Under the pieces are notes generated by a model. That model worked only from the letters and a program-made list of their open reading frames with translations, did no database searches and was not told the DNA's origin. Shown here piece after piece: positions 36,183 through 59,083 of a stretch of 64,000 bases of DNA; positions within the stretch are counted from its first letter, which is position 1, and every line of letters starts with the position of its first letter. A program made the translations under genes and the position numbers. This DNA comes from an uncultured Candidatus Saccharibacteria bacterium. GTDB taxonomy: Bacteria; Patescibacteriota; Minisyncoccia; Phycocordibacterales; UBA2100. Location: assembly GCA_964424265.1 (NCBI GenBank), contig CAYRHX010000004.1, forward strand, positions 4,081 through 68,080. The letters run 5' to 3'.

Positions 36183-37615
36183 TTAAATGAATTTGACCTT
36201 ACGCATCGCAAATGCGGTCATCTTAAGCAGGAGCCATCCGTGGCTCCAACGCTGAATGTTGGTGGTACCGTAGGTGCGCTCTCCGTAGTGCACGGGCATG
36301 TCGATGATCTTTCGGTTGAGCTTCGCTGCACCAAAGAGGAGGTCGAAATCACCAAAGGGATCGAAGTCGCCAAAAAAGGATCGGCCTGCCTGAATCTCCG
36401 CATAGTCTTCGCGCCAGAGCATCTTCGTGCCGCAGAGCGTGTCTTTCAGTCTCGAATCCAAAAGCCAGCTAAATGCCAGACCGAAAAATTTGTTGGCGAG
36501 CAAGTTCAAGAATCTCATAGATTCCTTCTCAAGCGGATACACGAGACGCGAGCCGTTGATAAAATCCCCCCTCCCCTCGACGAGCGCGCGATAAAATTTC
36601 TCCATATCGGATGCCGGAACAGTCATGTCCGCATCGTAAATAGTAAGGATATCGCCGGTCGCCATGTCAAATCCCTTTCGCACCGCGTCGCCCTTCCCCT
36701 TTCCGTCCTGTTGTGCAATCAATATTTTTCTCGCTCCTCGAGACGAGTCCGACCCGTATTTTTTGGCCACACGTTGTATCTCGTCCCACGTATTGTCCTT
36801 TGAGTGCCCCTCTATCAAGATGAGTTCGGTATATGATCCGAGCGTCGGGAGCTCCATCACAATACGTTCAATCATTCCTGCTTCATTGCGCGCGGGGACG
36901 ACGATTGAAAGAGAGGGGTTCGGCAGAGGTGAGCGCGAATCAATCTTGCGCAAGACAGCGTAGTGGTAGAGTCCGAGCCGCGTGAATGGAAAGATATTTG
37001 CGAGGTAGGTATTAAAAAAAGTGCTGATGATTGGGATGTATTTGGGGACGAGCATTCGTGTGCCGCCTCGCGCGACCTCAAGACCCGCAAGATGTGCGAA
37101 GTTCTCAAGGTCGTTGCGAGAAATCCAATTTTGCGTGCGCGATGGCATACGCAGCCCCACTGATGATGCCAGCTGCAAAAACGGCTCCCAAAGCGTACTG
37201 TGCTGCGTTACGACGATACGCCCGCGCCACGAGATGCGTTCGGAAGAATCGCGCAAGAGCGTCTCCACGTCATCAACGTACCCGAGCAGATCGGAAATAA
37301 CGGCGTACTCAAACGTTTCCTTCACGTTAGCAAGTTGCTCTTGCTTGAATGTCACATTCTCTGGCAGTTTTTGCTTTTGAATCTCAGAGATTATGCGCGC
37401 GCTCGCATGGATCCCAAGTCCGCGCTTCGGTGTAAGCAACGCGAGCAGGTCCGGAGAATCGGCACCGATGTGCAGTACCGTCGCTCCACGGGGAACGAGA
37501 AACCCGACGAAGGATTCGAGCGAGCGATGGTAGTACCTGTTTCGTTTGCGCCATCGCATCCTATCCTCAGCGTGACTGTCGAAATATTTGAGTGCCGCGT
37601 TACTGAGATGCATAG
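36183..37615 (-). CDS. Fusion: class I SAM methyltransferase-like domain + GT2 glycosyltransferase
   Basis: ORF extends to 37868, but the first 85 codons overlap the upstream gene and look non-coding. Start chosen at MHLSNAALKYFD. MTase motif ATVLHIGADSPDLLALL. GT2 motifs SIVVPARNEAGMIERIV, DADMTVP. Confidence 0.65.
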
Positions 37616-39306
37616 TTTGGGATCGAATACGGATCGCTCGCAGGGCAATAGTATACATGAGCCTCGATAGCACCCGAAGACGTGTCGAACACGCTCTCAC
37701 AGGTAGCAAAAAATCTGCTGTAAAACCCTGACATGTTGAGTTGAGGAAAATCGACGACGAGGTAGTGACCTTTGTGTTGCGCAAATCGCTCGCGATGCAC
37801 GCTCTCATTGCCAAGTACGGCATAAAATCTGCCTGCGTACTTCCCGAGGCTGTTGAGCTCGTATGCACCAGTATCGGCGTGAGTTATCACGCTTTTTATC
37901 TCGCTCGACGCGATATAAGCAACGCTCTCAGCAAGAACTTTCGGCGCGCTCCCATTAATCCTCCCCCACAAAAGCTCCTCAATAAACACTGCGCTGCCCG
38001 TGAGCCCGACCACCATTACAGCCACTAGGAGAGCAGGACGAATTTTTGGAAAGATTAGCGCACCAAGAGCCATACATCCTGCAGTAGCAAAGCTCACCGC
38101 GATAAAAAGAAACGACACGTAAAATCCGAGTGGCCCACTCCCTCCCGTAAACGGCATGAGAATATTCCAATTTCCATGCGCGACAGCTGAGATCCATTCC
38201 GTCTTTGGGTACAGAGGCACGACCTGCGGGGAGAGGAAATTGATCGATACAAGTATTGCCGCAAGAATGCCCCCAAGACTAAGCCCCTGCATCACACGGA
38301 CTCTCGGAATGTCCGCGAGCACTCGCGTGAGAATGTCGCCCACGATAGCGGCGAGGGGCACAATACTGAACATCAGATATTTATCGAGCGCTCCTTGTGA
38401 AAAATCAAACAGCACAAAGTAGAAGAACGCGCCCAGCCCCAGATATATGACAAAGATACGGTACCTTTTGAAAGTTTCTCTCGAGATGAACACAAGCGGC
38501 ACAATCAGCAAGGGCGACAAATAGAACAGCGCCTTAACCGCCTGTATAAGAATCTGCAGATACCCACGACCCTCAAAACGTACGTAGTAAAGAACGTGAG
38601 CGACCATTTTGCTCACGTCAAAGGATGGGAGAAAAAAGTGCGCACTTACGATCGCGGTAATTGCAATTGCTCCGCAGCCGAGAATGCCGATTAATGCACG
38701 AACGAAAACCCTACGCGTAAGCCTGTGGCGTACTTCTATAAGATAATCAGCGGCCAATGCACCCAAAATGAGGACAGCGCTGAGCTTGGTCAACAACCCG
38801 AGAGTGATCACAAGCGCAGCAACACATACCCACGCATACGATTCGCGAGTGGTCGCGGCACGGCGACAACGATCATACACGTACACTGCCAAGAGAAAGA
38901 GTGACGGAAGAATTGCACCATCAGTGTCCACCATGAGAGACGCCCACACGCCGTACATACAGACCGAGTAAAGCGAGAGCGCAGCAATGGCTGCATACAT
39001 TCCGGAGCGCCTACGCACCACAAGATACAGAAGTGCTGCCGAGAGTACTCCGAACGTAAGCGGAATGACGCGCAAATTATCGGCACCGATGACGTCTCCG
39101 CCCCATCGGTAAATACGCTCCGTGAGTGGAGGATGTGCGGCGAGCCCGCCAACGATATGCGAACGAACGATCTCGGCCGTTTTCCATTCATCTTGGTGAT
39201 ATGGGAGCGAGAGCCCTGGTAACCGTATAACTACGAACGCAAGAAGTAACCCAATAACTATGAACAACTCACGTTTGTGGCTCTGGATCCAACTTAAATT
39301 AATCAT
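37600..39306 (-). CDS. GT-C fold membrane glycosyltransferase (ArnT/PMT-like) with C-terminal soluble domain
   Basis: 568 aa, about 12 TM helices. N-term LPGLSLPYHQDEWK. Conserved C-terminus HKGHYLVVDFPQ...AIEAHVYYCP, shared with the 42312-43784 paralog. Confidence 0.7.
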   Translation of the reverse strand: MINLSWIQSHKRELFIVIGLLLAFVVIRLPGLSLPYHQDEWKTAEIVRSHIVGGLAAHPPLTERIYRWGGDVIGADNLRVIPLTFGVLSAALLYLVVRRRSGMYAAIAALSLYSVCMYGVWASLMVDTDGAILPSLFLLAVYVYDRCRRAATTRESYAWVCVAALVITLGLLTKLSAVLILGALAADYLIEVRHRLTRRVFVRALIGILGCGAIAITAIVSAHFFLPSFDVSKMVAHVLYYVRFEGRGYLQILIQAVKALFYLSPLLIVPLVFISRETFKRYRIFVIYLGLGAFFYFVLFDFSQGALDKYLMFSIVPLAAIVGDILTRVLADIPRVRVMQGLSLGGILAAILVSINFLSPQVVPLYPKTEWISAVAHGNWNILMPFTGGSGPLGFYVSFLFIAVSFATAGCMALGALIFPKIRPALLVAVMVVGLTGSAVFIEELLWGRINGSAPKVLAESVAYIASSEIKSVITHADTGAYELNSLGKYAGRFYAVLGNESVHRERFAQHKGHYLVVDFPQLNMSGFYSRFFATCESVFDTSSGAIEAHVYYCPASDPYSIPNYASQ

Positions 39307-40348: not shown

Positions 40349-42292
40349 TCATTTTCCGTACACACCCTCTAAAAGATCGAGATCTTTGTGCGTATCGCGG
40401 AGAAGTTTTACATTCTTGTGCTCCATCGCCTTCAATACTTCAATGCCGGGCGCATCGTCGGGAAATAGCTCTTCGTACTTCGCACGAAACGCGGCAAAGT
40501 CCTTGATGAAACAATGTCCCCCTGCCCCGCGCCCCGGCGGCCCACCGTGCCCGCTTTGATGAATAGGATCGAGATGCGAGCGTCCCATACGCGGATCAGC
40601 TGCAAACGCGTCGCGCACGGCTTCATAATTCCCCCCGAGTTTTCGCACAAAATCGTAGAGAATGTTGATATACACAACCTTGATATAGAGCCAATTATTG
40701 CCGGCATATTTGATAAATTCCGCTTCTACGGCTGAGCAAATAAGCTCGAACGGCGCGGGAGGAAGAATCGAGATGACCCTTTGCGCGAGTGCCCGAACTT
40801 CTGAAGTATCTGTGCAGATGCCGACGATGTTGCGATCGGGATGTGCGGCGTCGTACGCAGCTGTGGCCTCGCGCAAAAATTCTGGCGAATGCATTACCAC
40901 TTTTGTCGGATACTGCTTCTGAATGCTCTCAGTCATGCCCGGCAACATAGTGGATTTGATTACGGCAACCTTGCCCTCTCCAACCAGTGATACTGCTTCG
41001 CGAACGATTGCATCGCTAAATCCGCTGGGAGTAGTCGGTGTCGGCACCGCGATAAACACAATGTCGCAATCTTTTATTTTGTCCTTATTATTTCGGTACT
41101 GCTCTTCGAGAGAGTATCGAATTGGAGTAAATCCACGCGCCTCCAGTTCGTCGGCATAATTTTTGCCAATAAACCCCTGGCCTACATATCCAACGGTCGG
41201 TCGGTCCGTATCTTTTTGCTTTTTCTCGCCCGCACGCGCCTCCACACCCGAAGCAGAAAGCGATATGTCTGCGTACCACAGATCTCGATATTCAGCCTCA
41301 TTCGGAAAATTCAGAGTCAACGTGCCACGTTTTCCCTCCGAAAGCACCGCGATAGCAACGCGCGCCATGCCCTCGGGTGATGCAACAATCGCCCCCGCCT
41401 CCTTCGCAAGCCCTACGTCATAAGAAACGACGGGGCACCCAGCGGCAAGCGCTTCCATAATCACCATACCGAAACCTTCATACGACGAGGTGAGAAGAAA
41501 GATATCTGCGACTTTGTAATATGGAAATGAATCCTGAGCGCCTTCAAAGGCCACCCTATCGGCGAGTCCCAATTCATGCACTAGTGCCTCGAGTGGCGCA
41601 CGCTCAGAGCCGCTTCCCACAATAACAAGGCCCGCGGTGGGGTCCGCTTTCGCGATCTCTGCAAACGCGCGAATCGAAGCGGCGACGTTTTTTTCTTTTT
41701 CCAACCGCGCCACGATGAGAACGATCTTTTTGAAATTCGGAAATCGCGTGCGTCTGTCCAATGGCTCTGCTTTCATGAGATTCTCGAGATCAACAAAAAC
41801 AGGGAGCACGGTGACAGGGGCTTTGATCCCACGTGCCGTCAGTGAATCCTGAATGCGCTTTGAGACGACGCGTACGGCATCCGCCCGCGACAAGAGAAAC
41901 TGCGCGAGAAGGACCCTCAAGCGGTTTCCAAGCGAATGACCTCGAAAATTCGGATCGAAGAGATCGGTGTGGACCTGAAGATGCAATTTACTTCCACGCA
42001 AGCGAGCAATCGTCCAGGCGACTAACCCCGTCAAAAATGGATCTTGCGAAGTCACTACGTCCGGTCGTTGGATCCTCCAACCTGCTGCAATAGTGCGCAG
42101 AGAGCCCAAAACGCGCCCGAGACCAAACCCCCGCACCGCAGCGTTCCCTGATATCTGGACGAGCTGCAGAGGCCCATGAGGCACCAAAACATCCATTCGC
42201 TCGACAGTTCGCGCCTGCATCCGCAGGCGCCGGGCAACAGAGCTCGTCTCATTAAAAGCGTTCCAATCCGTGGAGAGTACCAATACCCGCAT
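40349..42292 (-). CDS. Fusion: GT4 glycosyltransferase + UDP-glucose/GDP-mannose dehydrogenase-family NAD-binding and catalytic-Cys domains
   Basis: 647 aa. N-term about 370 aa GT4 (GFGMVIMEALAAGCPVVSYD). C-term VGYVGQGFIGKNYA (Rossmann) and GGHCFIKD (UDPGDH catalytic GGSCFPKD equivalent). About 280 aa, apparently lacking the C-terminal UDP-binding domain. Confidence 0.65.
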   Translation of the reverse strand: MRVLVLSTDWNAFNETSSVARRLRMQARTVERMDVLVPHGPLQLVQISGNAAVRGFGLGRVLGSLRTIAAGWRIQRPDVVTSQDPFLTGLVAWTIARLRGSKLHLQVHTDLFDPNFRGHSLGNRLRVLLAQFLLSRADAVRVVSKRIQDSLTARGIKAPVTVLPVFVDLENLMKAEPLDRRTRFPNFKKIVLIVARLEKEKNVAASIRAFAEIAKADPTAGLVIVGSGSERAPLEALVHELGLADRVAFEGAQDSFPYYKVADIFLLTSSYEGFGMVIMEALAAGCPVVSYDVGLAKEAGAIVASPEGMARVAIAVLSEGKRGTLTLNFPNEAEYRDLWYADISLSASGVEARAGEKKQKDTDRPTVGYVGQGFIGKNYADELEARGFTPIRYSLEEQYRNNKDKIKDCDIVFIAVPTPTTPSGFSDAIVREAVSLVGEGKVAVIKSTMLPGMTESIQKQYPTKVVMHSPEFLREATAAYDAAHPDRNIVGICTDTSEVRALAQRVISILPPAPFELICSAVEAEFIKYAGNNWLYIKVVYINILYDFVRKLGGNYEAVRDAFAADPRMGRSHLDPIHQSGHGGPPGRGAGGHCFIKDFAAFRAKYEELFPDDAPGIEVLKAMEHKNVKLLRDTHKDLDLLEGVYGK

Positions 42293-42311: not shown

Positions 42312-43784
42312 TTAGGGCTTTTTCAAAACGACAGGACACTCGTAGACATGCCCCCTTATGACGCCGGAAGCAGAAGTGAATGTACTTGCACAGTGAGAAA
42401 AGAAGTCTTCGTAAAAACTGTGCTGGTCCCATCGGGGGATATCGACAACAAGATAGTGGCCCCTGAACGTGGAAAAAAGCTCTTTGTACCGCTCTTCATA
42501 TTGTGGAACCGCATAAAAGCGCTCCGCAAATTTGCCCATCTGCCAGAGCTCAAACGCGCCTGTCGCGCCATGAGTAATGACCGATGTCACCTTGTCCGAC
42601 TGCCGTATATATTCGATGGAGTCATTGAGTACATCTCGAGTACTTCCGTTGATCTTCCCGAAATATAATTCTTCTGTAAAAATGCCGGCATACAGGATGC
42701 TAAGAAACAACAGCGCGGTAACAAGTTGGCGTCGCCATTGTGGCCTGATAAGCGCAAACAGGGTGATCCCACCTGCGACAAGAAACGAGGCGGCGATAAA
42801 AAGGAATGACACATAAAACCCTGCCGGGCCCGAGCCGCCCACGAAAGGAATCAATATGTTCCAGTGAAGTCCGAGAATTTCTTTCACCCATGCCGACTTC
42901 GGATACAGAGACAACGCTTCCTGTGGCAAGAAGTTGAGCGCAAGAAGCCCGATGCCACCGAGAAGTAGGGCTGCACAATACGCGGGTCGGAGATCAGAGA
43001 TCCTCGAAATCTGCGTCGCAAGTGTCACCCCGATAATCGCACACAGGGGTGCCACAATGAGCAAAAGACACTTGTCGAGACCGCCCGTTGAAAAATCGAA
43101 GAGCACAAAATAGAAAAGAAATGCGAACGTAAGATATGCGAAGAAAACGCGCGTTCGATCAAAGACATCGCCAGTCACAAATGCAAGCGCGTATAAAAGT
43201 GGCCCGACATAAAGCAGCACTCTCCCCGTCTGCACGGCGATCTGCCCCCAATCTCGCGAGACATCAAAAACGAGCGCCGATGTGCGCGGCACTACCAACG
43301 AAAACAAAGCGCCAATCGAGAGAATCAGAAGTAGCGCAAATGGAATACGCGAGCGCCCTCCCCGCGCCATTCGATCATATGCAAAGACTGCGAGGAGAAA
43401 AAAGAACGGCAGTATCGCTCCGTCGAGATCAAACATTGTTGCACCAAGCGCTCCATACGCAACAGTGCCGAAGAGGAACAACGAAAGTAGCGCGGCGCGC
43501 GCCCCAGCGCGCGCCGCTACGATCACGTACAAGAGTACATACGAAAGCACAGTTAAGAAAAGCGGCAGCAAACGAAAATAATCTGGCTGTAGCGTTGCCC
43601 CAGCTGCGCTAAACAAGAATTCGGCAAGCGGTGACCCGTGGAAATACGGCTCCACTACCGTTGCCCCCTCCACCGCAAACCGCGCCGCCTTCCATTCACC
43701 TTGATGAAATGGCAAATCGAGACCAGGCAATTTAAGTACGAGGAGAAATAGCACGAGGCAACCAACCATCACAATCCTTCGCAT
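42312..43784 (-). CDS. GT-C fold membrane glycosyltransferase paralog
   Basis: 490 aa. LPGLDLPFHQGEWK and FRGHYLVVDIPRWDQHSFYEDFFSHCASTFTSASGVIRGHVYECP parallel the 37600-39306 protein. Confidence 0.7.
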   Translation of the reverse strand: MRRIVMVGCLVLFLLVLKLPGLDLPFHQGEWKAARFAVEGATVVEPYFHGSPLAEFLFSAAGATLQPDYFRLLPLFLTVLSYVLLYVIVAARAGARAALLSLFLFGTVAYGALGATMFDLDGAILPFFFLLAVFAYDRMARGGRSRIPFALLLILSIGALFSLVVPRTSALVFDVSRDWGQIAVQTGRVLLYVGPLLYALAFVTGDVFDRTRVFFAYLTFAFLFYFVLFDFSTGGLDKCLLLIVAPLCAIIGVTLATQISRISDLRPAYCAALLLGGIGLLALNFLPQEALSLYPKSAWVKEILGLHWNILIPFVGGSGPAGFYVSFLFIAASFLVAGGITLFALIRPQWRRQLVTALLFLSILYAGIFTEELYFGKINGSTRDVLNDSIEYIRQSDKVTSVITHGATGAFELWQMGKFAERFYAVPQYEERYKELFSTFRGHYLVVDIPRWDQHSFYEDFFSHCASTFTSASGVIRGHVYECPVVLKKP

Positions 43785-43902: not shown

Positions 43903-44730
43903 TTATGAGCCACTAACTAAATCATCGTCCCACCCGGTGTCCCCAGAAACAATAGTAAAATGAGCTGCTTGAGTTGGTGGCGATGTTTCAGCGTTCCTAA
44001 GCGCACGGAATCCCCAAGAGTAGGCATCGCCCGCATATCGGGTGAACACTTCGTCGAGAGTAGCCGTTTGGTACGGACGTTGCGCATCCTCTTTTTCCCA
44101 CACGATTATGTCTCCATGAGAATTGTGACCGAGCACAAGGCACGTATGATCAACTGCCTGGTCATGTATATATTTTGCGAATAGCACGGATGGAAAGCCG
44201 AAATTCTCTAAAAAAATCCGAAGATCCGCCGCTGATGTATATTGCCTATATTCCGCGTCAAAAAATTCCGCGGGAGGTCGCTCTGGAGTGGCTGCGTAGA
44301 GGCCCTGTTCTCGTTCGAGATTTTGAATGGCCACATGACAGTACCAGTCTCTAATGTGCAAGACACTTGGCTGATAGTGGGCGTTGCTAGAAACGCGATC
44401 GAAAGCGCGGACACCTTCTTCGATAACACGCATTTCCTCGGGCGTACGTTCAATATACGGCTTACGCGTGAGAAGACTCCATGATTTATCAGAAAGATCT
44501 TTAGCCCGTTCTTTTTCTTTGATCTGTTCCGGGCTTATTCGTGACGCCCTGCTTTGTATGTAGAAGGACTGCCGAATGATCTTTTGTTGCCGGGGAGTCA
44601 GCCTGGCAAAACCCTCTGTGCCCCGAACCATCTCCATAGTTTTCCGGCTTGCTTCCGCAGCACCTTCTTTCTGCGCTTTCAGTGATTTCTCTGCCTCCAT
44701 TAAGAACCATTGTAACAGGCGCCTCCCCAA
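43903..44730 (-). CDS. Hypothetical protein
   Basis: 275 aa, no recognisable family. Possible Cys/His pair (DWYCHV...GHNSHGD). Confidence 0.4.
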   Translation of the reverse strand: MGRRLLQWFLMEAEKSLKAQKEGAAEASRKTMEMVRGTEGFARLTPRQQKIIRQSFYIQSRASRISPEQIKEKERAKDLSDKSWSLLTRKPYIERTPEEMRVIEEGVRAFDRVSSNAHYQPSVLHIRDWYCHVAIQNLEREQGLYAATPERPPAEFFDAEYRQYTSAADLRIFLENFGFPSVLFAKYIHDQAVDHTCLVLGHNSHGDIIVWEKEDAQRPYQTATLDEVFTRYAGDAYSWGFRALRNAETSPPTQAAHFTIVSGDTGWDDDLVSGS

Positions 44731-44761
44731 GGAAACTGGGGCGGGTTGGGGAAGGGCGATG

Positions 44762-45550
44762 TCAAGGAGAACGCATTGTATCTTTGCATAGGAACAGTAT
44801 GGCTCGATGGTCGCTAAGCGGGTGGTCTTCGCAGGTGTAGCCGGGAAAGAGTCGCAGGAAGTCTTCCTTGGATTTTGCCATCAAATCATAGTGCACCTCT
44901 CCAATGCATATCGCAGGAAGCATTGAGGCGTCTGCGGACGCAAACATGCTGTACTCCCCTCCCTCAATATCAAACTTCATCAAGTCTGTCTTCCCATCCC
45001 GCAACACATCATGAATCGACACGGAACGTACTGATATTTTCTCCTCATTCCTACTGCGTCTCATGAGAGACGATGAGATCGAGCTTTCAGCATTCCTAAA
45101 AAAAGAAACTTCGCCGGAGATTGATGACACGGCAGCCTGAACGCACGTAATGTTTTGGAATTGCTGCATATTTTTCACCAACAAGTCGAAATTTTCGGGG
45201 TCAGGTTCGTAGGCAGTAACGATTGCGTGTGGGTACGTGCACGCAAAAAAAGCCACCGAGGCTCCTATATGACTTCCAATATCGACTAATTTCTTAGGCT
45301 CAATACTAGACGGTATCCGATATTCACCGCCCACAAACACCTCCTTCAGTACAGCGATATCAGCGCCGTCACGCACATTGAAAACAAATTCCCTGCCTTG
45401 GTACGTCAGTCGTAAAGGAACTGGTTTTCGGCCAAAAACCCTTTTGCGCAGCGGGACCCCAAAGAGCGCAGCGGGACCCCAAAGAGCGCAGCGGTAAGAC
45501 GTATACGATCTGCTGTGCCTCTTCCGCCAAGCGTTGATCCTATACCCCAA
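44762..45550 (-). pseudogene. FkbM-family methyltransferase, N-terminus frameshifted by a 20-bp tandem duplication (original start likely 45594)
   Basis: FkbM motifs DIGSHIGASVAFF...TAYEPDPENF...KFDIEGGEY. ORF 45406-45594 (MIGNMMFLIRKIQEYWG...AALFGVPLR) is in the frame reached by deleting one 20-nt repeat unit (45446-45485). Its ATG overlaps the stop of the upstream GT4 by 4 nt. Confidence 0.65.
45446..45494. repeat. 20-nt direct tandem repeat gcgcagcgggaccccaaaga x2.45
   Basis: Copies at 45446-45465 and 45466-45485, partial third at 45486-45494. Read directly from the sequence. Confidence 0.9.
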
Positions 45551-45590
45551 TACTCTTGTATTTTTCGGATGAGAAACATCATATTACCGA

Positions 45591-46703
45591 TCACCCTCGA
45601 AGCGCATTAATCGTGCCCTGTACCATACGGTCGACCGTGAAGCTCGCAGACTTTCTTTGCGCTGCGGCGACTATGCGCTCCGTACGTGCGTTGTCCTGGA
45701 GCAGTGCTCGTATAGCAACCTCAAGCTCTTGCTCGTTGTTATACGATACCAGGATACCTTCCGTGTCTTGTTCCAAGAGCTCCGGGTTGCCACCAACGTT
45801 TGTAGTAATGATCGGAGTACCTATAGACATGACTTCAAGCAGTTGGTGCGAGAACCCCTCATATCCTGTATTCAAAACGAAAAGATCGGCTGCCTTGATA
45901 CGTTGGTAAAGATGTTCATGTGAAAGACGTCCGAGAAATTGCACGTGTTCAACAACGCCTTCTGCCACTGCACACTCCCTCAAGCGATCGCGCTCTGGCC
46001 CCTCACCAGCAATGAATAAGCTGACCGTAGGGAAATCTTTGATCAAACGCGAAAGAATACCGATCAGCGTGTGCATACCTTTCCAAGAAACAAGGCGTCC
46101 CGCTGTGAGAAGAGATGGGTGAGACATGTTGAATCTGAGTGCAAGCTCTGTCTTAGATTCCCGCACCTCCACGGGATCAAATGCGTTGTACACAATAGTT
46201 ATTTTCATCGGAGTGACCCCCCACTTTTCGACAATGCTTTTAAGGTATTGGCTTGGAACAATTATTCTATCGGCTCGACGCGCCACGAAAGATTGGAGAA
46301 AGATCAGAAAACGTACGGCAATTGGATGCTTGCCCTGATACCGTACAAATTCATCCAGGCTTTCCCGAATTCCAAAACGTTGTGTTCCTTGCTCCCACGC
46401 ATAATCACCTCCAACACGTAAAATGTATCGAGTGCGCAATACTCTCGCTGCTATAAATGCGGGCAAACCAGTACTCACGGGATCAAGCGCAAGAACACAA
46501 TCCGCTCGACGCCCCCGCAAAACAACGAGAAAGAAATAGATCACGTGACGAAGGACCTTTGGATAACGACTTACCAATTTAAAATGGACGACCTCAACCT
46601 CTATACCTCTCCGAGGAAGTTCTTCAACAAGGATCTTCGCATATGTGGCGGGCCCGCCAATGTCCGGAGGAAACGGTCCGGCGGCAAGAAGGATACGCTT
46701 CAT
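45591..46703 (-). CDS. Glycosyltransferase family 4
   Basis: 370 aa. MKRILLAAGPFPPDIGGPATYAKIL. C-terminal GEGPERDRL...FVLNTGYEGFSHQLLEVMSIGTPIITTNVGG. Confidence 0.8.
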   Translation of the reverse strand: MKRILLAAGPFPPDIGGPATYAKILVEELPRRGIEVEVVHFKLVSRYPKVLRHVIYFFLVVLRGRRADCVLALDPVSTGLPAFIAARVLRTRYILRVGGDYAWEQGTQRFGIRESLDEFVRYQGKHPIAVRFLIFLQSFVARRADRIIVPSQYLKSIVEKWGVTPMKITIVYNAFDPVEVRESKTELALRFNMSHPSLLTAGRLVSWKGMHTLIGILSRLIKDFPTVSLFIAGEGPERDRLRECAVAEGVVEHVQFLGRLSHEHLYQRIKAADLFVLNTGYEGFSHQLLEVMSIGTPIITTNVGGNPELLEQDTEGILVSYNNEQELEVAIRALLQDNARTERIVAAAQRKSASFTVDRMVQGTINALRG

Positions 46704-50963: not shown

Positions 50964-51791
50964 CTATCCTGTTTCGTCGGTTTCTTCAATGATGTTCCAC
51001 TCATGTTTACTCAAACGCTTCGCATAAAATATTGCGGCGGCCGCAAAGAGGGCAACGGCGCATACGCCCAACAACCACAGAAAAGGACTGCTCGAAGCAG
51101 TATTCGCAGCAGCTACATTTTCTGGCGTTGTGCTGGTCGCAATGTCACCTTTCTCACCACTTTCTAATGCAAGAGGCTCTGCCGTATCGACAGACGATTC
51201 TGCAACAACTTTTGCCACCACTTTTGGTTTTGATGCAGCCTTGGTGGGCTCTTTGGGCGAAAGCACAAGAGCGTTCGGTAACATGGCCGCGCCTGGACTA
51301 GGCGAACGAGGGACAAACGAGGATTCTGCGCTTGCGCGATTCAAAGAATTTCCATCTCCCGCAGCTCCCATCGAACTTTGGTAGATGATCGTATCGACAT
51401 CGGTGCTACTCGCGTTGCGCAGAGAGATCGTCTCACCGCTATTGCTCAAACTAAACGCACTGTCAAAAAGCGGACCGCGGTAATCTGGCCAATCAATTTT
51501 ATAACTCGTCGCATTATCGGCGATGATGGCGTACGCACCTGGCAGAAGCATGGCGCCATGAGAGACTGCCGTAATCTTGTGCGCGGTCCCATTCTCGAAC
51601 AATCTATACGTACTCAAGGACACTTCTATGGTTCCTGCGTTATATACCTCTACCCATTCTCTTCCACCATCAGCTCCTGATTGAAGATCGTACATCAGCT
51701 CGGTAACGACAACCTGCGCATTCACAATACCTGGAAATACACAGAATAATCCCAAAATGAGAATGGTTGGTTTACCGATCAAGATTGTCAT
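50964..51791 (-). CDS. Lamin-tail-domain (LTD) protein with signal peptide and C-terminal TM anchor
   Basis: Start at MTILIGKPTILILGLFCVFPGIVNA (signal peptide). LTD block VVVTELMYDLQSGADGGREWVEVYNAGT...ETISLRNASSTDVDTIIY. C-terminal FLWLLGVCAVALFAAAAIFYAKRL. Confidence 0.7.
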   Translation of the reverse strand: MTILIGKPTILILGLFCVFPGIVNAQVVVTELMYDLQSGADGGREWVEVYNAGTIEVSLSTYRLFENGTAHKITAVSHGAMLLPGAYAIIADNATSYKIDWPDYRGPLFDSAFSLSNSGETISLRNASSTDVDTIIYQSSMGAAGDGNSLNRASAESSFVPRSPSPGAAMLPNALVLSPKEPTKAASKPKVVAKVVAESSVDTAEPLALESGEKGDIATSTTPENVAAANTASSSPFLWLLGVCAVALFAAAAIFYAKRLSKHEWNIIEETDETG

Positions 51792-53595
51792 CCTCTCGAA
51801 GGAGGCGCTGGAGAACTTCTGGAGAAACTTCGCTACTTCGTTCATCCCGTACAGTATCTCGCGAATTCTGGTGACGCGGAGGAAGCGCAGAACGAGACTG
51901 TGGATGCGGTCGAGGGGCATGCTCATGCACTTGCGCGCGGTCATGACGTTGACTCATTTTGTTGGCATTTTTCTCGCGCAAAATGTCCGCTGGCGAACGA
52001 ATCGGCCCGGCACTCGAAACATCCTGAAGTGGCGTCGCTCGAACATGCCTGAGTGCCGCGCGGAGCGCATCGCGTGGATCAGAAGCAGATTGAGTCACCC
52101 TGTTCGGAGTACCATGCGCATGCGGTGGAGGATGTACCGCAAATCCTTTCGTCTGCAGTGCGCTCTGTTGGATGTGCGAAGATACCCCAGGTGGTGACTG
52201 TGTGGGACGTGCCGCAGGGCTCTCAGGACGCGGCCGCGTTCCGTATGCGCTTCCAGAATTCGACTCCTTTGGTTTTTTGGGCGGCGGCTGAAATTCGAGT
52301 TGGCGCCTATTGACCCCCGCCTCGACCTCAGCGCGCGACCGACCGTAGAGTGCACGCGAATTCCGCACGCAATCGTCACGATATGAGATCGGGGGTGTAT
52401 CGATGGGAGGAATTGTCTCTGCCGAAAACGGTTTGGTGCCGACGCCGTCTACCATAAGCGTAAGATATATCTGGCCGATACCGAGCCCCACGAGATCCGC
52501 CGGCAAAAAGATCGGATCAAACACGGGTTCGAGCACCGCGGCGTCGAAGGGGCCGACACGAAATACGATCAGTGTGCCGACGTTGCCAAACACCGCATCG
52601 CGCACCTCCTCTTCCATCTGCTCGATATATTGGTTGGCGAGCGTCAGCGCCAATTTGTATTTGCGCGATTCCGAAAGAATGTCGGCAAACGCTTCGTTCA
52701 TCATCGATTGAAACTCGTCGACGTAAAAATAGTGGCGCGGCAATTTCGCCATACGCACGGCAGGCTCATCGGCGCGCGACATCGCGGCAAGATAAATCTT
52801 CACGACGAGCATACTGCCAAGCAAAGATGCGTTGGTCTCGCCCATGCGCCCCTTCGAGAGGTTGACGATAAAGATCTTCTTTTCATCCATGATCTTCCGG
52901 AGGTCGAAAGAGGATTTCCCTTGCCCCACGATGTTTCGTATCAGCGGATTAGCGGTAAATTGACCGATCTTGTTTTGGATCGCGGGTGTTGCTTCTCGCG
53001 TATAGGTATCGGTAAACGCCGCAAACTCTTCCACCCAAAACCCGCGTACGATAGGATCGGTTATTTTTTCCACAACGGACGCGCGAAACGCCTTATTGGT
53101 GAGCATGCGATTCACATCGAGCAGTGTCGAATCCGGGTACTCTAGAAGTGCCAAGAGCGTATTCTGCAAAATATATTCCATTCTCGCGCTCCACGTATCC
53201 ACCCATATGCGCTTGAGCGCACCCATGAGTCCGGAGACCACCAGGTGACGCTTGTCGTAGCCGACGTCCTCCATCACATTGAATCCAATCGGGTGATCGG
53301 TATCAAACGGAGCAAAATACACAACGTCTTTAATGCGGTCATGAGGCACAAAATCAAGCAATTTTTCTGCCGTCGCACCGTGGGGATCGATAAACGATAT
53401 GCCCTCGCCGTTTTGTATATCCTGTATCGCCATGTTTTCGAGCATGGTCGATTTTCCCATGCCCGTCTTTCCGATCACGTATATGTGTTTGCCGCGATCG
53501 GCGGCGCGTATACCAAATATCTCGCGCTTGCCGCGCGTATGCGTCGCCGCAAAATACGTTATACGGCGATCATCGCTTTGATGATCGGGATGCAT
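51772..53595 (-). CDS. TraD/TraG/VirD4-like type IV secretion coupling ATPase homolog (TrwB_AAD_bind-type), cytoplasmic form with disordered Pro/Arg-rich tail
   Basis: 607 aa. Walker A IYVIGKTGMGKST, Walker B YFYVDEFQ. C-terminal about 170 aa low-complexity. Confidence 0.6.
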   Translation of the reverse strand: MHPDHQSDDRRITYFAATHTRGKREIFGIRAADRGKHIYVIGKTGMGKSTMLENMAIQDIQNGEGISFIDPHGATAEKLLDFVPHDRIKDVVYFAPFDTDHPIGFNVMEDVGYDKRHLVVSGLMGALKRIWVDTWSARMEYILQNTLLALLEYPDSTLLDVNRMLTNKAFRASVVEKITDPIVRGFWVEEFAAFTDTYTREATPAIQNKIGQFTANPLIRNIVGQGKSSFDLRKIMDEKKIFIVNLSKGRMGETNASLLGSMLVVKIYLAAMSRADEPAVRMAKLPRHYFYVDEFQSMMNEAFADILSESRKYKLALTLANQYIEQMEEEVRDAVFGNVGTLIVFRVGPFDAAVLEPVFDPIFLPADLVGLGIGQIYLTLMVDGVGTKPFSAETIPPIDTPPISYRDDCVRNSRALYGRSRAEVEAGVNRRQLEFQPPPKKPKESNSGSAYGTRPRPESPAARPTQSPPGVSSHIQQSALQTKGFAVHPPPHAHGTPNRVTQSASDPRDALRAALRHVRATPLQDVSSAGPIRSPADILREKNANKMSQRHDRAQVHEHAPRPHPQSRSALPPRHQNSRDTVRDERSSEVSPEVLQRLLREDDNLDR

Positions 53596-53630: not shown

Positions 53631-55193
53631 TTATCGCCCTACGCCCTGTGACTCACCGGGTGCATACAAACTATGTACGAAGTTCAATAGCTTTCGCACA
53701 TCACTTTCTGAATCTTGGGAACCAAGAACGATAACAGCAATCTCGCGCTCCTCGTCCCCGATTTTGACATTGAATATGCCGGCGTAGGTCTCGAACGCTT
53801 CTCTCGTTTGGCCCACCTTCCCTCCTAGCAATGTCGCGGGGGCGTTTTTGATAAGATTGAAATTGCGAACGTTTTTAAACTCCGGTGTTCCATATACACT
53901 GTCTTTTATATCGCCCGAGGTAATGCCAAAAACAAAACGCCTGTTATCGCGAATATATCGCAGAAGCATGAAAAGATCTTGCGGCGTAGAATAATCGCCT
54001 TTTGCACCCGAAGGATCTGAAAAAATCGTGTGCGTGAGGCCGATCGCTTTCGCCTTCTCATTCATGTATTTCACAAATTGATCCCGACCTGTAATTGCGG
54101 CCAATGTTTCCGCGGCCTCATTGGAAGATTCCTGTAGAAGGAGAAACAAGAGGTCGTATACGCGCGCATCAGTGCCAACGCGCAACCGCGGAACTGATGT
54201 GTACACGATGGCATCCTCCGGGACTGCGATGGTTTTGTCGAGATTTATATACTCAGTGGCCACGAGCGCGCTCACGAGTTTGGAAATCGAAGCAATGGGT
54301 GCCGCTATCGAGGCTCCTTTCTCCGATAGGACCGTCCCGTTTTTCGCATCAGCCACGAGATACGAAGTCGCCGACACTGCTGGCGCTTTGAGCTGGTAGC
54401 CGAAAGAATCTTCCACGGGCGGAGCATTGTAGACGACCACTGACATCTCGGCAGATGCCAAGTCATATACTCGCTTCGCATCTTCGGTAGAAAGTCTGAT
54501 GCAACCACCAGAATAGGATGAGGCAACGGGAGTACCGTCTTCATAGTACGGCCACCCATGTATGAAGAAATTGCCCTGGAACGCGATGCTCCATGGTTGA
54601 TACACTTTTCCAAATGTTGAGAAGTGATTTTTCTCTTTTGTCTGGACGCGATAAATGCCCGCTGGCGTTTCCCACCACGAACCAGCTTTTCCTTTCGCGA
54701 GTATTGGCACTTCGAGCGCCACGACGCCATCGACGTTTACGCGCAGAAGCATGAGCGAGAGGTCGGCATCGATAAAAGAAACCTTGCTTGCCGTGAGTGA
54801 GGCCTTCACATCTTCGTAGTATCCTCGATCGGAGAGGGTCGCGAGCGCTCCGTAGACAAGAGGAAGGGTGGTTGATGCTGTCGAGGAGGGAATAGAAATG
54901 GAGTATACGGTTGGGGGTTTGTAGAGCACGTATCCGGAAAAACCGAGTGCCGCAAATGAAAGTACCGCGAGTATTGTGGTCGAGGCAGGTAGTGGCCAAC
55001 TCAACCCTCGATGAAGCTCTGCACGCGGCGGCGCGACGTCCTTTTGTGCAGTTGAGTGTCCCGACGCGAGCGAGGTCAAAAGTGCCTCACTCGTCCAGCC
55101 CTCAATCATGAGGCGACTCAATATTGCACCGTCCGACATTCCTTGCCTTCGAAGAAATTCGATACGTACCGTCGGATCGTCGATTCGTGTCAT
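53631..55193 (-). CDS. Bifunctional L,D-transpeptidase (YkuD) + serine D-Ala-D-Ala carboxypeptidase (S11/PBP5-like)
   Basis: Start chosen at MTRIDDPT (ORF extends to 55454). YkuD catalytic HGWPYYEDGTPVASSYSGGCIRLS. SxxK motif SISKLVSAL and S11-like C-terminal half. TM near N-terminus. Confidence 0.7.
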   Translation of the reverse strand: MTRIDDPTVRIEFLRRQGMSDGAILSRLMIEGWTSEALLTSLASGHSTAQKDVAPPRAELHRGLSWPLPASTTILAVLSFAALGFSGYVLYKPPTVYSISIPSSTASTTLPLVYGALATLSDRGYYEDVKASLTASKVSFIDADLSLMLLRVNVDGVVALEVPILAKGKAGSWWETPAGIYRVQTKEKNHFSTFGKVYQPWSIAFQGNFFIHGWPYYEDGTPVASSYSGGCIRLSTEDAKRVYDLASAEMSVVVYNAPPVEDSFGYQLKAPAVSATSYLVADAKNGTVLSEKGASIAAPIASISKLVSALVATEYINLDKTIAVPEDAIVYTSVPRLRVGTDARVYDLLFLLLQESSNEAAETLAAITGRDQFVKYMNEKAKAIGLTHTIFSDPSGAKGDYSTPQDLFMLLRYIRDNRRFVFGITSGDIKDSVYGTPEFKNVRNFNLIKNAPATLLGGKVGQTREAFETYAGIFNVKIGDEEREIAVIVLGSQDSESDVRKLLNFVHSLYAPGESQGVGR

Positions 55194-55197
55194 AGCT

Positions 55198-56430
55198 TTA
55201 TTCTTTACCGAGGACCACCCTAAGGCTTCGATATTTGTTTGCCGGGTCCCAAAAGAGATATGAATCGAGCCCAGCGTCTTCGTTTGCCTTAATCTGCTCT
55301 TGCACCATCGCTGGCGTGTAGGTAACGGGATAATCAAAGCTTTGGAGCCAGGGGCGTATTTTAGACGCAGGATACGCGGGCTTCGAGTACACCGCGGGAG
55401 TTGAGGTCCCAATACGTTCGTAGGCGAATGATGCGATCGGCGTTGTCGTTGCAAGGGTTCGTCTTACCGCCTCGACCATGGAAAGATGTACTATGTCGTA
55501 CGAATGGGAGTTCACATCCTTATACCCATTGAATCCGCTTGGATAGTGCGAGGGATACACCATTGGATCAATGAAGTCGAAGTACGGCAGTGCGCGCTCC
55601 AGTACTTGACCAATATTCAGATCATCTTGATTTGTGGCCGTCATCCCAAAGAGATCCGCCGATGTAACGACCCCTATAGGCTCGAGTTGCTCAGACAGAT
55701 ACTTGAAAAAACTCTCGAGTACTTCCGGCTTTGTGCGGCCATCGGCCCACGAATACACCGCCTCTTTCATCGGACCGTCTGAGGGAAAGCGGATGTAGTC
55801 AAAGTTGAGTTCATCAAAACCAATCGCGTACGATTCTTTGGCCAATTCCACGACGTTGTCCCAGTATGGTTTTGCCCCCACGTCTACAAACGCGAGACCT
55901 TTGTGATCCTTCCACACGCCTCCACCACTCTTTTGCACTGCTTCGTCAGGATGGACTTTTGTGTACGCGGGATTTTGAAACGTGGTGATGCGGCCGATGA
56001 CATAAATATCTTTTTCGTGCAGCTCTTTGATAAACGCCTTCATATCACGTGCCCCACAGGCATCCGACACATAGTCTTTGAGTGAAGGATTGTCTGTAGG
56101 AAACGCTATCTTTCCTGTGTAATCTCGAATATCGATAAGGAGGGCATTGATCTCCGTAGTGTCAACAAGCTCAATCAAATCTTTGCGAAACGAAGGCGTG
56201 CCAGCCGCGCATTGCGACATATACACCGCCTTCACTGTGGGCGGCGTAGCAAGATGCTGCACCTCTGGCTCTGTAGGTGTGATCACGCCATTTGAACCTA
56301 CGACTTGAGCAACATTGCCGCCACGAATATACGAAACTTTCGGCATAGCAGAAGCCACTGCGGCTACAACACCAACAGAAAGGAGAAACAGTACTCCGAG
56401 TATCAATATCCTACTGCGCCAATTCTTCAT
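55198..56430 (-). CDS. Secreted glycoside-hydrolase-like TIM-barrel protein (DUF4015/GHL-type)
   Basis: 410 aa. Signal/TM ILILGVLFLLSVGVVAAVASA. GFDELNFDYIRFP motif typical of this hypothetical GH-like family. Confidence 0.55.
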   Translation of the reverse strand: MKNWRSRILILGVLFLLSVGVVAAVASAMPKVSYIRGGNVAQVVGSNGVITPTEPEVQHLATPPTVKAVYMSQCAAGTPSFRKDLIELVDTTEINALLIDIRDYTGKIAFPTDNPSLKDYVSDACGARDMKAFIKELHEKDIYVIGRITTFQNPAYTKVHPDEAVQKSGGGVWKDHKGLAFVDVGAKPYWDNVVELAKESYAIGFDELNFDYIRFPSDGPMKEAVYSWADGRTKPEVLESFFKYLSEQLEPIGVVTSADLFGMTATNQDDLNIGQVLERALPYFDFIDPMVYPSHYPSGFNGYKDVNSHSYDIVHLSMVEAVRRTLATTTPIASFAYERIGTSTPAVYSKPAYPASKIRPWLQSFDYPVTYTPAMVQEQIKANEDAGLDSYLFWDPANKYRSLRVVLGKE

Positions 56431-56635
56431 GTCGGTGAGCGCTTTCGGCGTATGTCTCTCCAGTTCTTGAGGCAGCTGACTGTCCGCTGCCTCGTCTGCG
56501 CACCACGATCCCCAACGCCACTACCAAAATCCCTGCAATCAAGAAAAGCACGGTATCCCAGCTCTGTGGAAATCCCAAAAACGGCAACGTAGCCACAAAC
56601 GCCCCCAACGTCATAAGAAGTGTGTCGACTGTCAT
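56411..56635 (-). CDS. Small two-TM membrane protein
   Basis: 74 aa. LLMTLGAFVATLPFLGF and VLFLIAGILVVALGIVV. Start overlaps RT stop region. Confidence 0.4.
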   Translation of the reverse strand: MTVDTLLMTLGAFVATLPFLGFPQSWDTVLFLIAGILVVALGIVVRRRGSGQSAASRTGETYAESAHRHEELAQ

Positions 56636-57666
56636 GCGGAAATTATACCATTACTTTTTCCCACCTGTCTTTTGCTCAATAATGACAACAAATTCTCCGT
56701 CAGCATCCACGCATTCCCATGCTCCAACATACCCGCATAAGATTGTATCGTCGGGCTTTCTTTCTCAAGTCTTGAGACACGTTTCTGCATCCTCCTCTTC
56801 GTACTCGTGCGAAGAACGCGATGATCGGGAAAGTGCACCCACCCGAGGAAATCAATGCCGGATGCGAAGGTCTGAATGGATACCTTATCGGGATGCAACG
56901 CAAGGCTGAGCTTCGCATCAAGAAACGTCTGGATGCGCGGCAGCAGTACTTCGAGGTCCGAACGTGAGGCAGAGAGAATCACAAAATCATCCGCATACCG
57001 AACGTAATGGTTTATTCGAAGCCGATGCTTCACGAATTGGTCAAATTCATTCATGTATACGTTCACGAGCAGCTGCGAGGTGAGGTTGCCGAGAGGCAGC
57101 CCTTTCCCTTCTTTGGTCGAATGAAAGCTACCGATGACTTCGGCGACAAGGGCGCAGATCCTCTCGTCAGGAATATAACGACCTACGATGTCGTTAATGA
57201 TGCGGTGGTCAATCGAGGCGAAGAACTTCTTGATGTCGCACTTGAGTACCCAGCACGTGCGGGTGTGGTTGCGGGAGACTTTCGCGGCAAGCTGCATGAA
57301 GCGTCCCATCGCTCGATGTGTTCCCTTTCCCTTCCTACATGAATATGAATCTGCGATCCATGTGCGGTCGAAGAATGGGTACAGTTTCCTGTACAGAGCG
57401 TGATGCAATAGTCGATCACGAACTGTCGCCTTGTGGATGTCTCGGGGCTTCGGATCGCTGATCTTGAATGCCTCGTACAGCCCGTGACGATACTTCCCAC
57501 CCGTAAGGTCACAATGGAGTGCGAAGACGTTGCCCATCAACTTGTATTGAAACTCTTGCACGTCTTGCTTCTTGCGTTTGCCTCTCACAAACTCCTTCCA
57601 TGCTGCGAGGAGATTCTCTACGCAAATGATATCCTCGTAGGTATGAGTGAGTTGGATGCGAGCCAT
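56632..57666 (-). CDS. Diversity-generating retroelement reverse transcriptase
   Basis: 344 aa. DGR-diagnostic LPLGNLTSQLLVNVYM ((I/L)GxxxSQ replacing QGxxxSP). Catalytic YVRYADDFVIL. TR located 418 bp upstream on the same strand. Confidence 0.9.
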   Translation of the reverse strand: MARIQLTHTYEDIICVENLLAAWKEFVRGKRKKQDVQEFQYKLMGNVFALHCDLTGGKYRHGLYEAFKISDPKPRDIHKATVRDRLLHHALYRKLYPFFDRTWIADSYSCRKGKGTHRAMGRFMQLAAKVSRNHTRTCWVLKCDIKKFFASIDHRIINDIVGRYIPDERICALVAEVIGSFHSTKEGKGLPLGNLTSQLLVNVYMNEFDQFVKHRLRINHYVRYADDFVILSASRSDLEVLLPRIQTFLDAKLSLALHPDKVSIQTFASGIDFLGWVHFPDHRVLRTSTKRRMQKRVSRLEKESPTIQSYAGMLEHGNAWMLTENLLSLLSKRQVGKSNGIISA

Positions 57667-57722
57667 CCCAGAAACCGTACCCCCCCCCCGCCCGATTCCG
57701 CAACAACAATTCGTGCCCGTCG

Positions 57723-58069
57723 TATCTAAACTTAAAGACGCATATCTAATCTGGCAAAGCTTTCTTCCCCATGTCGCGAAAGCTCATCGGCAAACGATTG
57801 CACACAGGATCGATACAGAGCTTTTAGAAACGCTGTCGTCGAGTTTTAGAGCTGCTTATCTAAAAGATGAGCGGAAGATTGCCGCTATAGAAGCCGCTCT
57901 TGCACGACTTGATCTTGCAAAATTCTTTTTGATTATTGGTTGGGAAATGAAAATGTTGACGGATTCACAATACGCACAGATCTCAGAGTATCTCGTGGAG
58001 GCAAGCAAAATGCTGGTGGGATGGAAAAACTATCTTGAAAAGAAAACTCCCGCGCAACGAGAACGTTGA
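57723..58069 (+). CDS. avd: Avd-like accessory variability determinant (four-helix-bundle / 23S rRNA IVS-protein family)
   Basis: About 115 aa from GTG 57723 (alternative ATG at 57656 would overlap the RT start head-to-head). C-terminal ISEYLVEASKMLVGWKNYLEKK matches the Avd hallmark (E.G+mLGGW.k). Sits between RT and TR but on the opposite strand. Confidence 0.65.
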
Positions 58070-58083
58070 TGGGAGAAAGACGT

Positions 58084-58197
58084 GAGTTTCTGACAACAAG
58101 GCGATTCTCGCGATTCCAGACGTTGTCGTTGTCGAGCGAGTTCACGTTGCGGTTCCACTGCCTGCCATTGCGATTCGCGTAGGCCACGGAGACTTTT
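58084..58197 (-). repeat. DGR template repeat (TR)
   Basis: 114-bp alignment with 58461-58574. All 21 mismatches (18 in the 58084-58193 core, plus 58194-58196) are at T on the plus strand, i.e. A on the minus/TR-sense strand. No non-A substitutions. Encodes Asn-rich ...VSVAYANRNGRQWNRNVNSLDNDNVWNRENRLVVRNS. Confidence 0.9.
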
Positions 58198-58415
58198 GTA
58201 CTCTGCGCCATCTGTACCACCGCCCATTGAGTTCTCTCCAGGCTGTATCTGATGCGGGGTCGTGAGCCCTCGAGCGTAGAGCACCAACTCATTTCTTTTT
58301 TGCGGGAATTGCACCCGAAACCTCGCCATTCCAAGCCAAAATAATAATTTGGGCCGAAAATGCCAGCGTGTTCTAAATAATTGTACCCCACCCGCGCGAT
58401 TGCGGATGGGGTACG

Positions 58416-58460
58416 GGACGCTCGAAGAAAGTGACCAAGGGTCACAGGTTCGAAGCGTCC
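58416..58460. promoter_or_regulatory. Nested GC hairpin immediately 3' of VR (DGR hairpin/cruciform-like). Second hairpin at 58383-58414.
   Basis: gtgacc-aag-ggtcac (58431-58445) nested within ggacgctcgaag...cttcgaagcgtcc arms. Adjacent gtacccca...tggggtac hairpin (58383-58414). Target gene stop codon lies inside the hairpin. Confidence 0.6.
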
Positions 58461-59083
58461 GAGTTGCTGACAACAAGGCGATGCCCGCGATCCCAGACGC
58501 GGCCGTGGCCGAGCGAGTACACGTCGCGGAGCCACTGCCTGCCACCGCGACCCGCGTAGGCCACGGAGACCGATCCGTCTGCGTTTTCGACGGGAAAGAA
58601 GTTGGCGAATCCGTCGGTTCGGAAGCCGAAGTCCTCACCGCCCTCCTGCTTCTTGACGAACTTCTCCTGCTTCTCGATCATCAGATCGATTTTCTGGGAG
58701 GCCAGTGTATGGCCTCCCTGCTTGAGGCGATTGGCGATCTCCTCGATCGTCGCGGTTTCGGGCAGCTTGAGGAGCGCGCGGAACATTTGCGCGAACATCA
58801 TGTTTTGACGGAGTCCGAATGTGGTCACCGACGTCGACCCGAGCGTCGTCTGCTTGACCGCGACGAACAGCGAGGGCTTTGGTTCGGAAGCCGCTGCCGG
58901 ATCCTTCGGGGCAAGAAGCTGGTCGAAGGCAACGGCAAGCAGCTCTTGAAGCTCGGCCCCCCTGGTATTGCAAGTCTTGATAACCTGGGCCGGATCACGA
59001 CCCTCGACCACTTGGGCGAGCGCTTTCGCGACTGGCCCGATGACTTCCGCGAATTGCGGGTTAGTGAAGGCTGTTCCACCCAT
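58442..59083 (-). CDS. DGR target protein (variable C-terminal about 38 aa)
   Basis: 213 aa. VR occupies the last about 38 codons. GAGGG RBS-like motif 8 nt upstream of ATG. No obvious signal peptide. Confidence 0.8.
   Translation of the reverse strand: MGGTAFTNPQFAEVIGPVAKALAQVVEGRDPAQVIKTCNTRGAELQELLAVAFDQLLAPKDPAAASEPKPSLFVAVKQTTLGSTSVTTFGLRQNMMFAQMFRALLKLPETATIEEIANRLKQGGHTLASQKIDLMIEKQEKFVKKQEGGEDFGFRTDGFANFFPVENADGSVSVAYAGRGGRQWLRDVYSLGHGRVWDRGHRLVVSNSDASNL
58461..58574 (-). repeat. DGR variable repeat (VR) within 3' end of target gene
   Basis: Counterpart of the TR. Encodes ...VSVAYAGRGGRQWLRDVYSLGHGRVWDRGHRLVVSNS. AAC/AAT codons of the TR appear as GGT/CTC/GAC/TAC/CAC/CGC/GAT/CAT. 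Confidence 0.9.

Follow-up and report, generated by a model that had tools for sequence, protein, structure and literature searches.

Slippage between short direct repeats is a standard route to short tandem duplications. The tracts of simple-repeat (SSR) contingency loci are of another build: they repeat units of 1–7 nt many times over and are evolved, conserved features. SSR contingency loci mutate at up to 1 × 10−3 per division (PMC4235727). Among glycan genes, cap3A, cap8E and tts of the pneumococcal capsule are reported to undergo spontaneous tandem duplication (Waite 2001 Mol Microbiol 42:1223; 2003 Microbiology 149:497; cited in PMC4022640), and in phcA of Ralstonia solanacearum tandem duplications are reported to lead to reversible non-pathogenic variants (Poussier 2003; cited in bioRxiv 10.1101/2023.04.27.538605). 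The locus presented here, from an uncultured Patescibacteria-like bacterium, contains a 20-bp tandem duplication within an FkbM-family gene, which most probably arose recently and spontaneously and constitutes a loss-of-function allele segregating between near-identical strains.

The following features were identified in the window, that is, the whole 64-kb stretch of DNA that was analysed:

44762-45582, minus strand: disrupted FkbM-family methyltransferase gene, with ATG at 45582 and stop at 44762-44764; a pseudogene in the two-copy allele.
45406-45594, minus strand: ORF of the N-terminal fragment; its product has 62 aa if translation begins at GTG 45594 and 58 aa if it begins at ATG 45582.
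44762-45376, minus strand: C-terminal fragment as called by the gene finder, 204 aa with a GTG start (P0001).
44762-45550, minus strand: C-terminal ORF with a TTG start, 262 aa, from the program-made ORF list.
45591-46703, minus strand: GT4 glycosyltransferase upstream of the methyltransferase (Pfam Glycos_transf_1 and Glyco_transf_4).
45446-45465: repeat unit 1, GCGCAGCGGGACCCCAAAGA.
45466-45485: repeat unit 2, GCGCAGCGGGACCCCAAAGA, 100% identical to unit 1.
45486-45494: partial third copy, 9 nt, GCGCAGCGG.

Positions 45446-45494 form a perfect period-20 tandem tract of 2.45 copies (2.5 copies, 100% matches and a score of 98 in TRF), which on the plus strand reads GCGCAGCGGGACCCCAAAGA twice, followed by GCGCAGCGG. 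Both TRF and a direct scan recovered what a preliminary description of this DNA had noticed from the sequence alone, namely a 20-bp unit present twice in tandem at 45446-45485 plus 9 nt of a third copy. The 9-mer GCGCAGCGG occurs at 45446-45454, 45466-45474 and 45486-45494, constituting a microhomology. In the direct scan of the window, the tract showed 29 consecutive identities at lag 20, the second-longest match run being 11 for lags of 10–30 nt across the whole 64 kb. It was also the sole strong tandem repeat detected by TRF in the 64 kb, with the remaining ones scoring 52 or less. By our own estimate, the chance expectation for a 29-nt run is approximately 64,000 × 21 × 4^-29, which is negligible; chance cannot produce the tract.

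The two ORFs in offset frames that had been described, at 45406-45594 (62 aa) and 44762-45550 (262 aa), are both present on the minus strand. From ATG 45582, the N-terminal fragment consists of 39 native and 19 out-of-frame residues, ending at the stop in 45406-45408; the tract sits at codon 39/40, where codon 39 is the last one in frame and 45465 the first base to depart from the intact allele. When either 20-nt unit was deleted in silico, as the preliminary description had proposed for 45466-45485, both ORFs fused and re-translation restored one continuous FkbM protein; counted from the GTG it has 270 aa, and counted from ATG 45582 it has 266, instead of the approximately 271 aa anticipated. 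P0001 is 100% identical to this repaired protein over 76% of the query and is missing the family's 62 N-terminal residues, and N-terminal products of 58 and 57 aa occur in public records from five contigs. We also considered programmed -1 frameshifting as a way of rescuing the two-copy allele, and rejected it, because GGGTTTT, the one heptamer that resembles a slippery site, is out of register with frame A.

The ORF had been said to begin with an ATG at 45594, but the codon at 45594-45592 is a GTG, which overlaps the GT4 stop as GTGA; the other start candidates are a pair of ATG codons at 45582 and 45579. The start methionine of P0002, the closest homologue, aligns exactly with ATG 45582, and the GT4 stop lies 8 nt before this ATG, against 5 nt between the GT4 stop and the FkbM start in the orthologous locus L007. 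For these two reasons, the native start is likely to be ATG 45582 rather than the GTG overlapping the GT4 gene. The 4-nt overlap that had been interpreted as a sign of translational coupling does not hold as stated, given this likelier start, while the tight spacing of the two genes does.

To characterize the product, we compared the repaired protein with family models, homologues and structures. It scored 48 bits against PF05050 (cut-off 22.7), whose domain spans residues 98-237 numbered from the GTG, and 77.2 bits against TIGR01444 fkbM_fam (cut-off 37.7). A search of 5.8 billion proteins yielded 24 relatives, most of them of 256-275 aa and with 92-97% query coverage. Twenty homologues of 256-275 aa align with the repaired ORF at full length, straight across the junction; the relatives come largely from Patescibacteria (CPR), including MAGs of Adlerbacteria, Azambacteria, Paceibacterota and Parcubacteria, and it is from such homologues that the Patescibacteria-like affiliation of the window is deduced. 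The N-terminal comparison with orthologues suggested beforehand showed that the homologues include the segment upstream of the repeat, and none of them has a natural start near LRLTYQGREF. P0002 is 69% identical to the repaired protein, with 21 identities in the 39 residues before the junction and 28 in the 32 just after it; at the junction itself P0002 reads ...KIREYWDVAKILGGKGVMHRIHLTALLVGVPLRKRLFGRKPVPLRL..., and the repaired protein ...KIQEYWGIGSTLGGRGTADRIRLTAALFGVPLRKRVFGRKPVPLRL....

Across 22 aligned sequences, D94, G96 and G100 (VDIGSHIG; D-x-G-x-x-x-G motif) are invariant, L18 is nearly so, and the junction has PLRKK as its majority consensus. An AlphaFold2 model of the intact protein reached a pLDDT of 94.4 and a pTM of 0.91, with residues 1-63 modelled as two helices and a beta-hairpin. 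The best Foldseek matches of the model were SAM methyltransferases, with E-values down to 1e-8; for the N-terminal segment, Foldseek against the PDB and a sequence search of solved structures returned generic SAM-methyltransferase matches only and nothing specific. As predicted from family models and fold, the repaired protein is therefore an FkbM-family methyltransferase with a class I SAM-methyltransferase fold.

The gene lies within a glycan-biosynthesis region spanning approximately 20–51 kb of the window, which contains several GT4 and GT2 glycosyltransferases, PMT_2-type membrane transferases, epimerases/dehydratases and other methyltransferases, as well as a NeuB-like synthase, an aminotransferase and a Wzx-like flippase. 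Judging solely from this genomic context, the enzyme would most likely methylate a sugar of a surface glycan. L007, the closest orthologous locus, keeps the order GT4-then-FkbM, which has 9 occurrences in total among 81 related loci; we thus discarded the pair as a conserved module, the order being only loosely conserved. The genes downstream of the methyltransferase, at 43903-44700 (minus strand, 265 aa) and 42312-43784 (minus strand, 490 aa, hydrophobic), had no Pfam or NCBIfam match, and a search with Rfam gave no family at or above its gathering score across the 64 kb.

Several other features of the window are recorded here in their own right. There are three apparent fusion ORFs, all on the minus strand: one of 647 aa at 40349-42292, joining GT4 with the N-terminal and central domains of UDP-glucose/GDP-mannose dehydrogenase; one of 561 aa at 36183-37868, joining Methyltransf_23 with GT2; and one of 607 aa at 53631-55454, joining a YkuD L,D-transpeptidase with an S11 D-Ala-D-Ala carboxypeptidase. 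A diversity-generating retroelement occupies 56632-58570 (minus strand), with an RT ORF (RVT_1) spanning 56632-57666 and, immediately upstream of it, a bAvd-like ORF. Its 110-nt repeat pair, with the template at 58084-58193 and the variable copy at 58461-58570, is 85% identical, and each of the 17 mismatches is at a position where the template copy has an adenine.

Public assemblies contain both states of the methyltransferase gene. The second member of the 90% cluster of P0001 is P0025, of 266 aa, whose sequence is letter for letter that of the in silico repaired protein from ATG 45582. P0025 is encoded by contig k141_773473 of ENA assembly ERZ27247817 (L003), which carries the single-copy allele. 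Over its whole 3,945 bp, this contig has two differences from window positions 46797-42833, a 20-nt gap at the repeat and a SNP. It reads ...CTTA CCGCTGCGC TCTTTGGGGTC CCGCTGCGC AAAAGG..., where 11 bp separate the two 9-bp direct repeats. The two-copy allele, 100% identical to the window, was found in five further contigs and is the consensus in several sequencing runs. The SNP and these contigs are as follows:

44741: SNP between the window and L003, the only one between them; intergenic, 21 nt downstream of the methyltransferase stop.
L001: two-copy allele, MEGAHIT-style k141 contig of ENA ERZ27247830.
L004: two-copy allele, 31.8-kb MEGAHIT-style k141 contig of ENA ERZ27247820.
L002, L005 and L006: two-copy allele, Logan assemblies of ERR3094294, ERR3094295 and ERR3094293, respectively.

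Exact-pattern scans with both flanks and a gap of 20–50 nt matched neither allele in GTDB species genomes or JGI metagenome contigs.

The preliminary description had also entertained an assembly artefact, and a sequencing or assembly error could have produced either a spurious duplication in the window or a collapsed repeat in the single-copy contig. A small k may mis-resolve short tandem repeats, and the single-copy allele comes from one contig of one assembly (ERZ27247817). Nevertheless, the five contigs that share the two-copy allele with the window add at least three runs and two assembly pipelines. The 49-bp period-20 tract should, by reasoning from its period, contain no repeated 31-mer, so that de Bruijn assemblers would resolve it without ambiguity from k = 31 upwards. 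As for the single-copy contig, a second contig of ERZ27247817, L096, is unlike the window at 57259 and from 52609 onwards; judged by such differences, this assembly marks a slightly different genotype. A collapsed repeat in L003 is unlikely, because the contig has a private SNP at 44741 and the same assembly differs from the window in L096. An artefact of either kind is thus very unlikely, to the extent that we give it almost no weight.

Contig ends in these samples also drew our attention. Near the methyltransferase, independent assemblies from different runs have breakpoints in common, at 44758/44759, 44866, 45353, 46797, 48297 and 35179, and no repeated 25-mer lies behind the first five of these; the pattern suggests that the glycan locus is micro-diverse in these samples. 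We attempted to use contig ends shared by ENA assemblies and Logan runs to place both alleles together in ERR3094293, but this pairing is unreliable because different runs share ends (48297 in ERR3094294 and ERR3094295; 35179 in ERR3094293 and ERR3094294). L096 follows the window over approximately 9.5 kb, with the single difference at 57259, and then accumulates 22 differences in its last 73 aligned positions. This divergence, at 52537-52609, is inside ORF 51772-53595 (TrwB/VirD4-like coupling protein), where Logan contig L095 (ERR3094294) ends at 52588, and looks like a boundary between differing strains or a recombination edge.

The two alleles suggest a simple origin for the duplication. 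In the single-copy ancestor, the 9-bp direct repeats CCGCTGCGC (gene strand) would have had their starts 20 bp apart, and replication slippage between them would have duplicated exactly the 20-bp interval. What we observe is a perfect head-to-tail duplication within an ORF, bounded by the 9-bp repeats, with the parental allele present in a sister genotype. Neither the units, which match each other fully, nor the coding sequence past the frameshift, which is that of the intact allele, shows any decay, indicating a recent event. The extra 20 nt shifts the frame after codon 39, so that translation from the native start ends after 58 aa, and the methyltransferase core could be made, if at all, only as a fragment without the conserved first 62 residues. 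Of the three alternatives contemplated in the preliminary description, recent pseudogenisation of an FkbM gene frameshifted by the 20-bp duplication is the best supported, P0025 being intact on an independent contig.

Loss of function would not follow if a truncated enzyme, either the 204-aa fragment or the 262-aa ORF from TTG, were translated and active, the duplication then being neutral or only regulatory. Gene callers do call the 204-aa ORF, whose GTG at 45376 is 29 nt past the premature stop and which keeps the whole PF05050 domain; re-initiation at this codon could produce the fragment, which counts against a firm loss of function. However, we found no strong ribosome-binding site before GTG 45376, all full-length homologues in the alignment retain the N-terminal segment of approximately 60 residues, and this segment is modelled at a pLDDT above 94. 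Activity of a truncated enzyme therefore appears decidedly improbable. The product of the two-copy allele is probably non-functional, because the conserved and confidently modelled N-terminal segment would be wholly absent from any re-initiated 204-aa fragment, and glycan methylation by the predicted enzyme has most likely been lost.

A duplication of this kind might also operate as a switch, the 20-bp unit being gained and lost often, by slippage or short-homology recombination, and toggling methylation of the surface glycan in response to, for instance, phage or host pressure; we consider this unlikely. It is true that one-copy (ON) and two-copy (OFF) alleles occur in almost identical backgrounds, apparently in one study, and that surface-glycan clusters are the usual target class of phase variation. 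The unit of 20 nt is not a multiple of three, with one copy giving a 266-aa ORF and two copies a 58-aa product, and a tandem duplication with 29 nt of homology allows in principle a precise loss of one unit, which would restore the gene. Precedents are reported in pneumococcal cap3A, cap8E and tts (PMC4022640) and in Ralstonia phcA (bioRxiv 10.1101/2023.04.27.538605).

Against such recurrence, only the one- and two-copy states are on record, the predicted products of zero, three and four copies being absent from a collection of 15 billion proteins. The mutable tract is not conserved in the closest orthologous locus, L007 (69% identical), where both the repeat and the 9-bp microhomology are absent from this site. 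The window in its ancestral state contains 9 comparable sites with 9-bp direct repeats, versus approximately 3 expected by chance, and this site is thus not special; nor does the window contain a second tract of this kind. Finally, the single-copy contig has its own SNP and its assembly differs from the window elsewhere; since the single-copy allele is linked to other differences, one mutation in one lineage suffices. It is accordingly doubtful that we are looking at one state of a recurrent ON/OFF switch, with alleles coexisting within samples and held by fluctuating selection from phages or host attachment. Our literature search found no report of phase variation in Patescibacteria; if it were true, the switch would be a duplication-based, rather than simple-repeat, example in this group. 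An evolved on/off switch is unlikely, and the mutation, which could revert in principle, is of an ordinary kind, a new instance of a well-known type.

A recent slippage duplication with loss of function, the reading that we prefer, has some practical consequences. The annotation can be corrected, as two public entries, an FkbM protein of 204 aa and a hypothetical protein of 58 aa, are pieces of one 266-aa gene split by the duplication. In a natural population of Patescibacteria-like bacteria from which both alleles were recovered, the locus would represent the loss of a glycan-tailoring step at the level of strains, and the duplication provides a clean natural marker by which genotypes in those samples can be followed. 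It is also a cheap test case for asking whether surface-glycan changes in these bacteria are driven by revertible mutations.

Within the FkbM family (PF05050, TIGR01444), the repaired protein resembles other members in passing both models, in its motif and in the class I fold of its model, whereas the Patescibacteria-rich subfamily to which it belongs has its own conserved N-terminal segment, of approximately 65 residues, outside the Pfam domain. As to the mutation, the locus shares with the SSR contingency loci of Haemophilus, Neisseria and Campylobacter (PMC4235727) a change by units that are not a multiple of three and that toggles the frame of a gene for a surface structure. Unlike in those loci, the unit here is of 20 nt and present once or twice, and the orthologue is without the underlying microhomology. 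With phcA the likeness is that a tandem duplication in an ORF causes a revertible loss of function, although phcA encodes a regulator instead of a glycan enzyme and its reversion was observed experimentally in planta. For the pneumococcal genes, switching was reportedly measured in culture in both directions by Waite and colleagues, whereas here we have one event and two states in an uncultured organism, and a tailoring methyltransferase in place of a synthase. With these differences, cap3A, cap8E and tts are alike in that a short, perfect head-to-tail duplication in a glycan ORF turns the gene off, and its precise loss restores the wild type.
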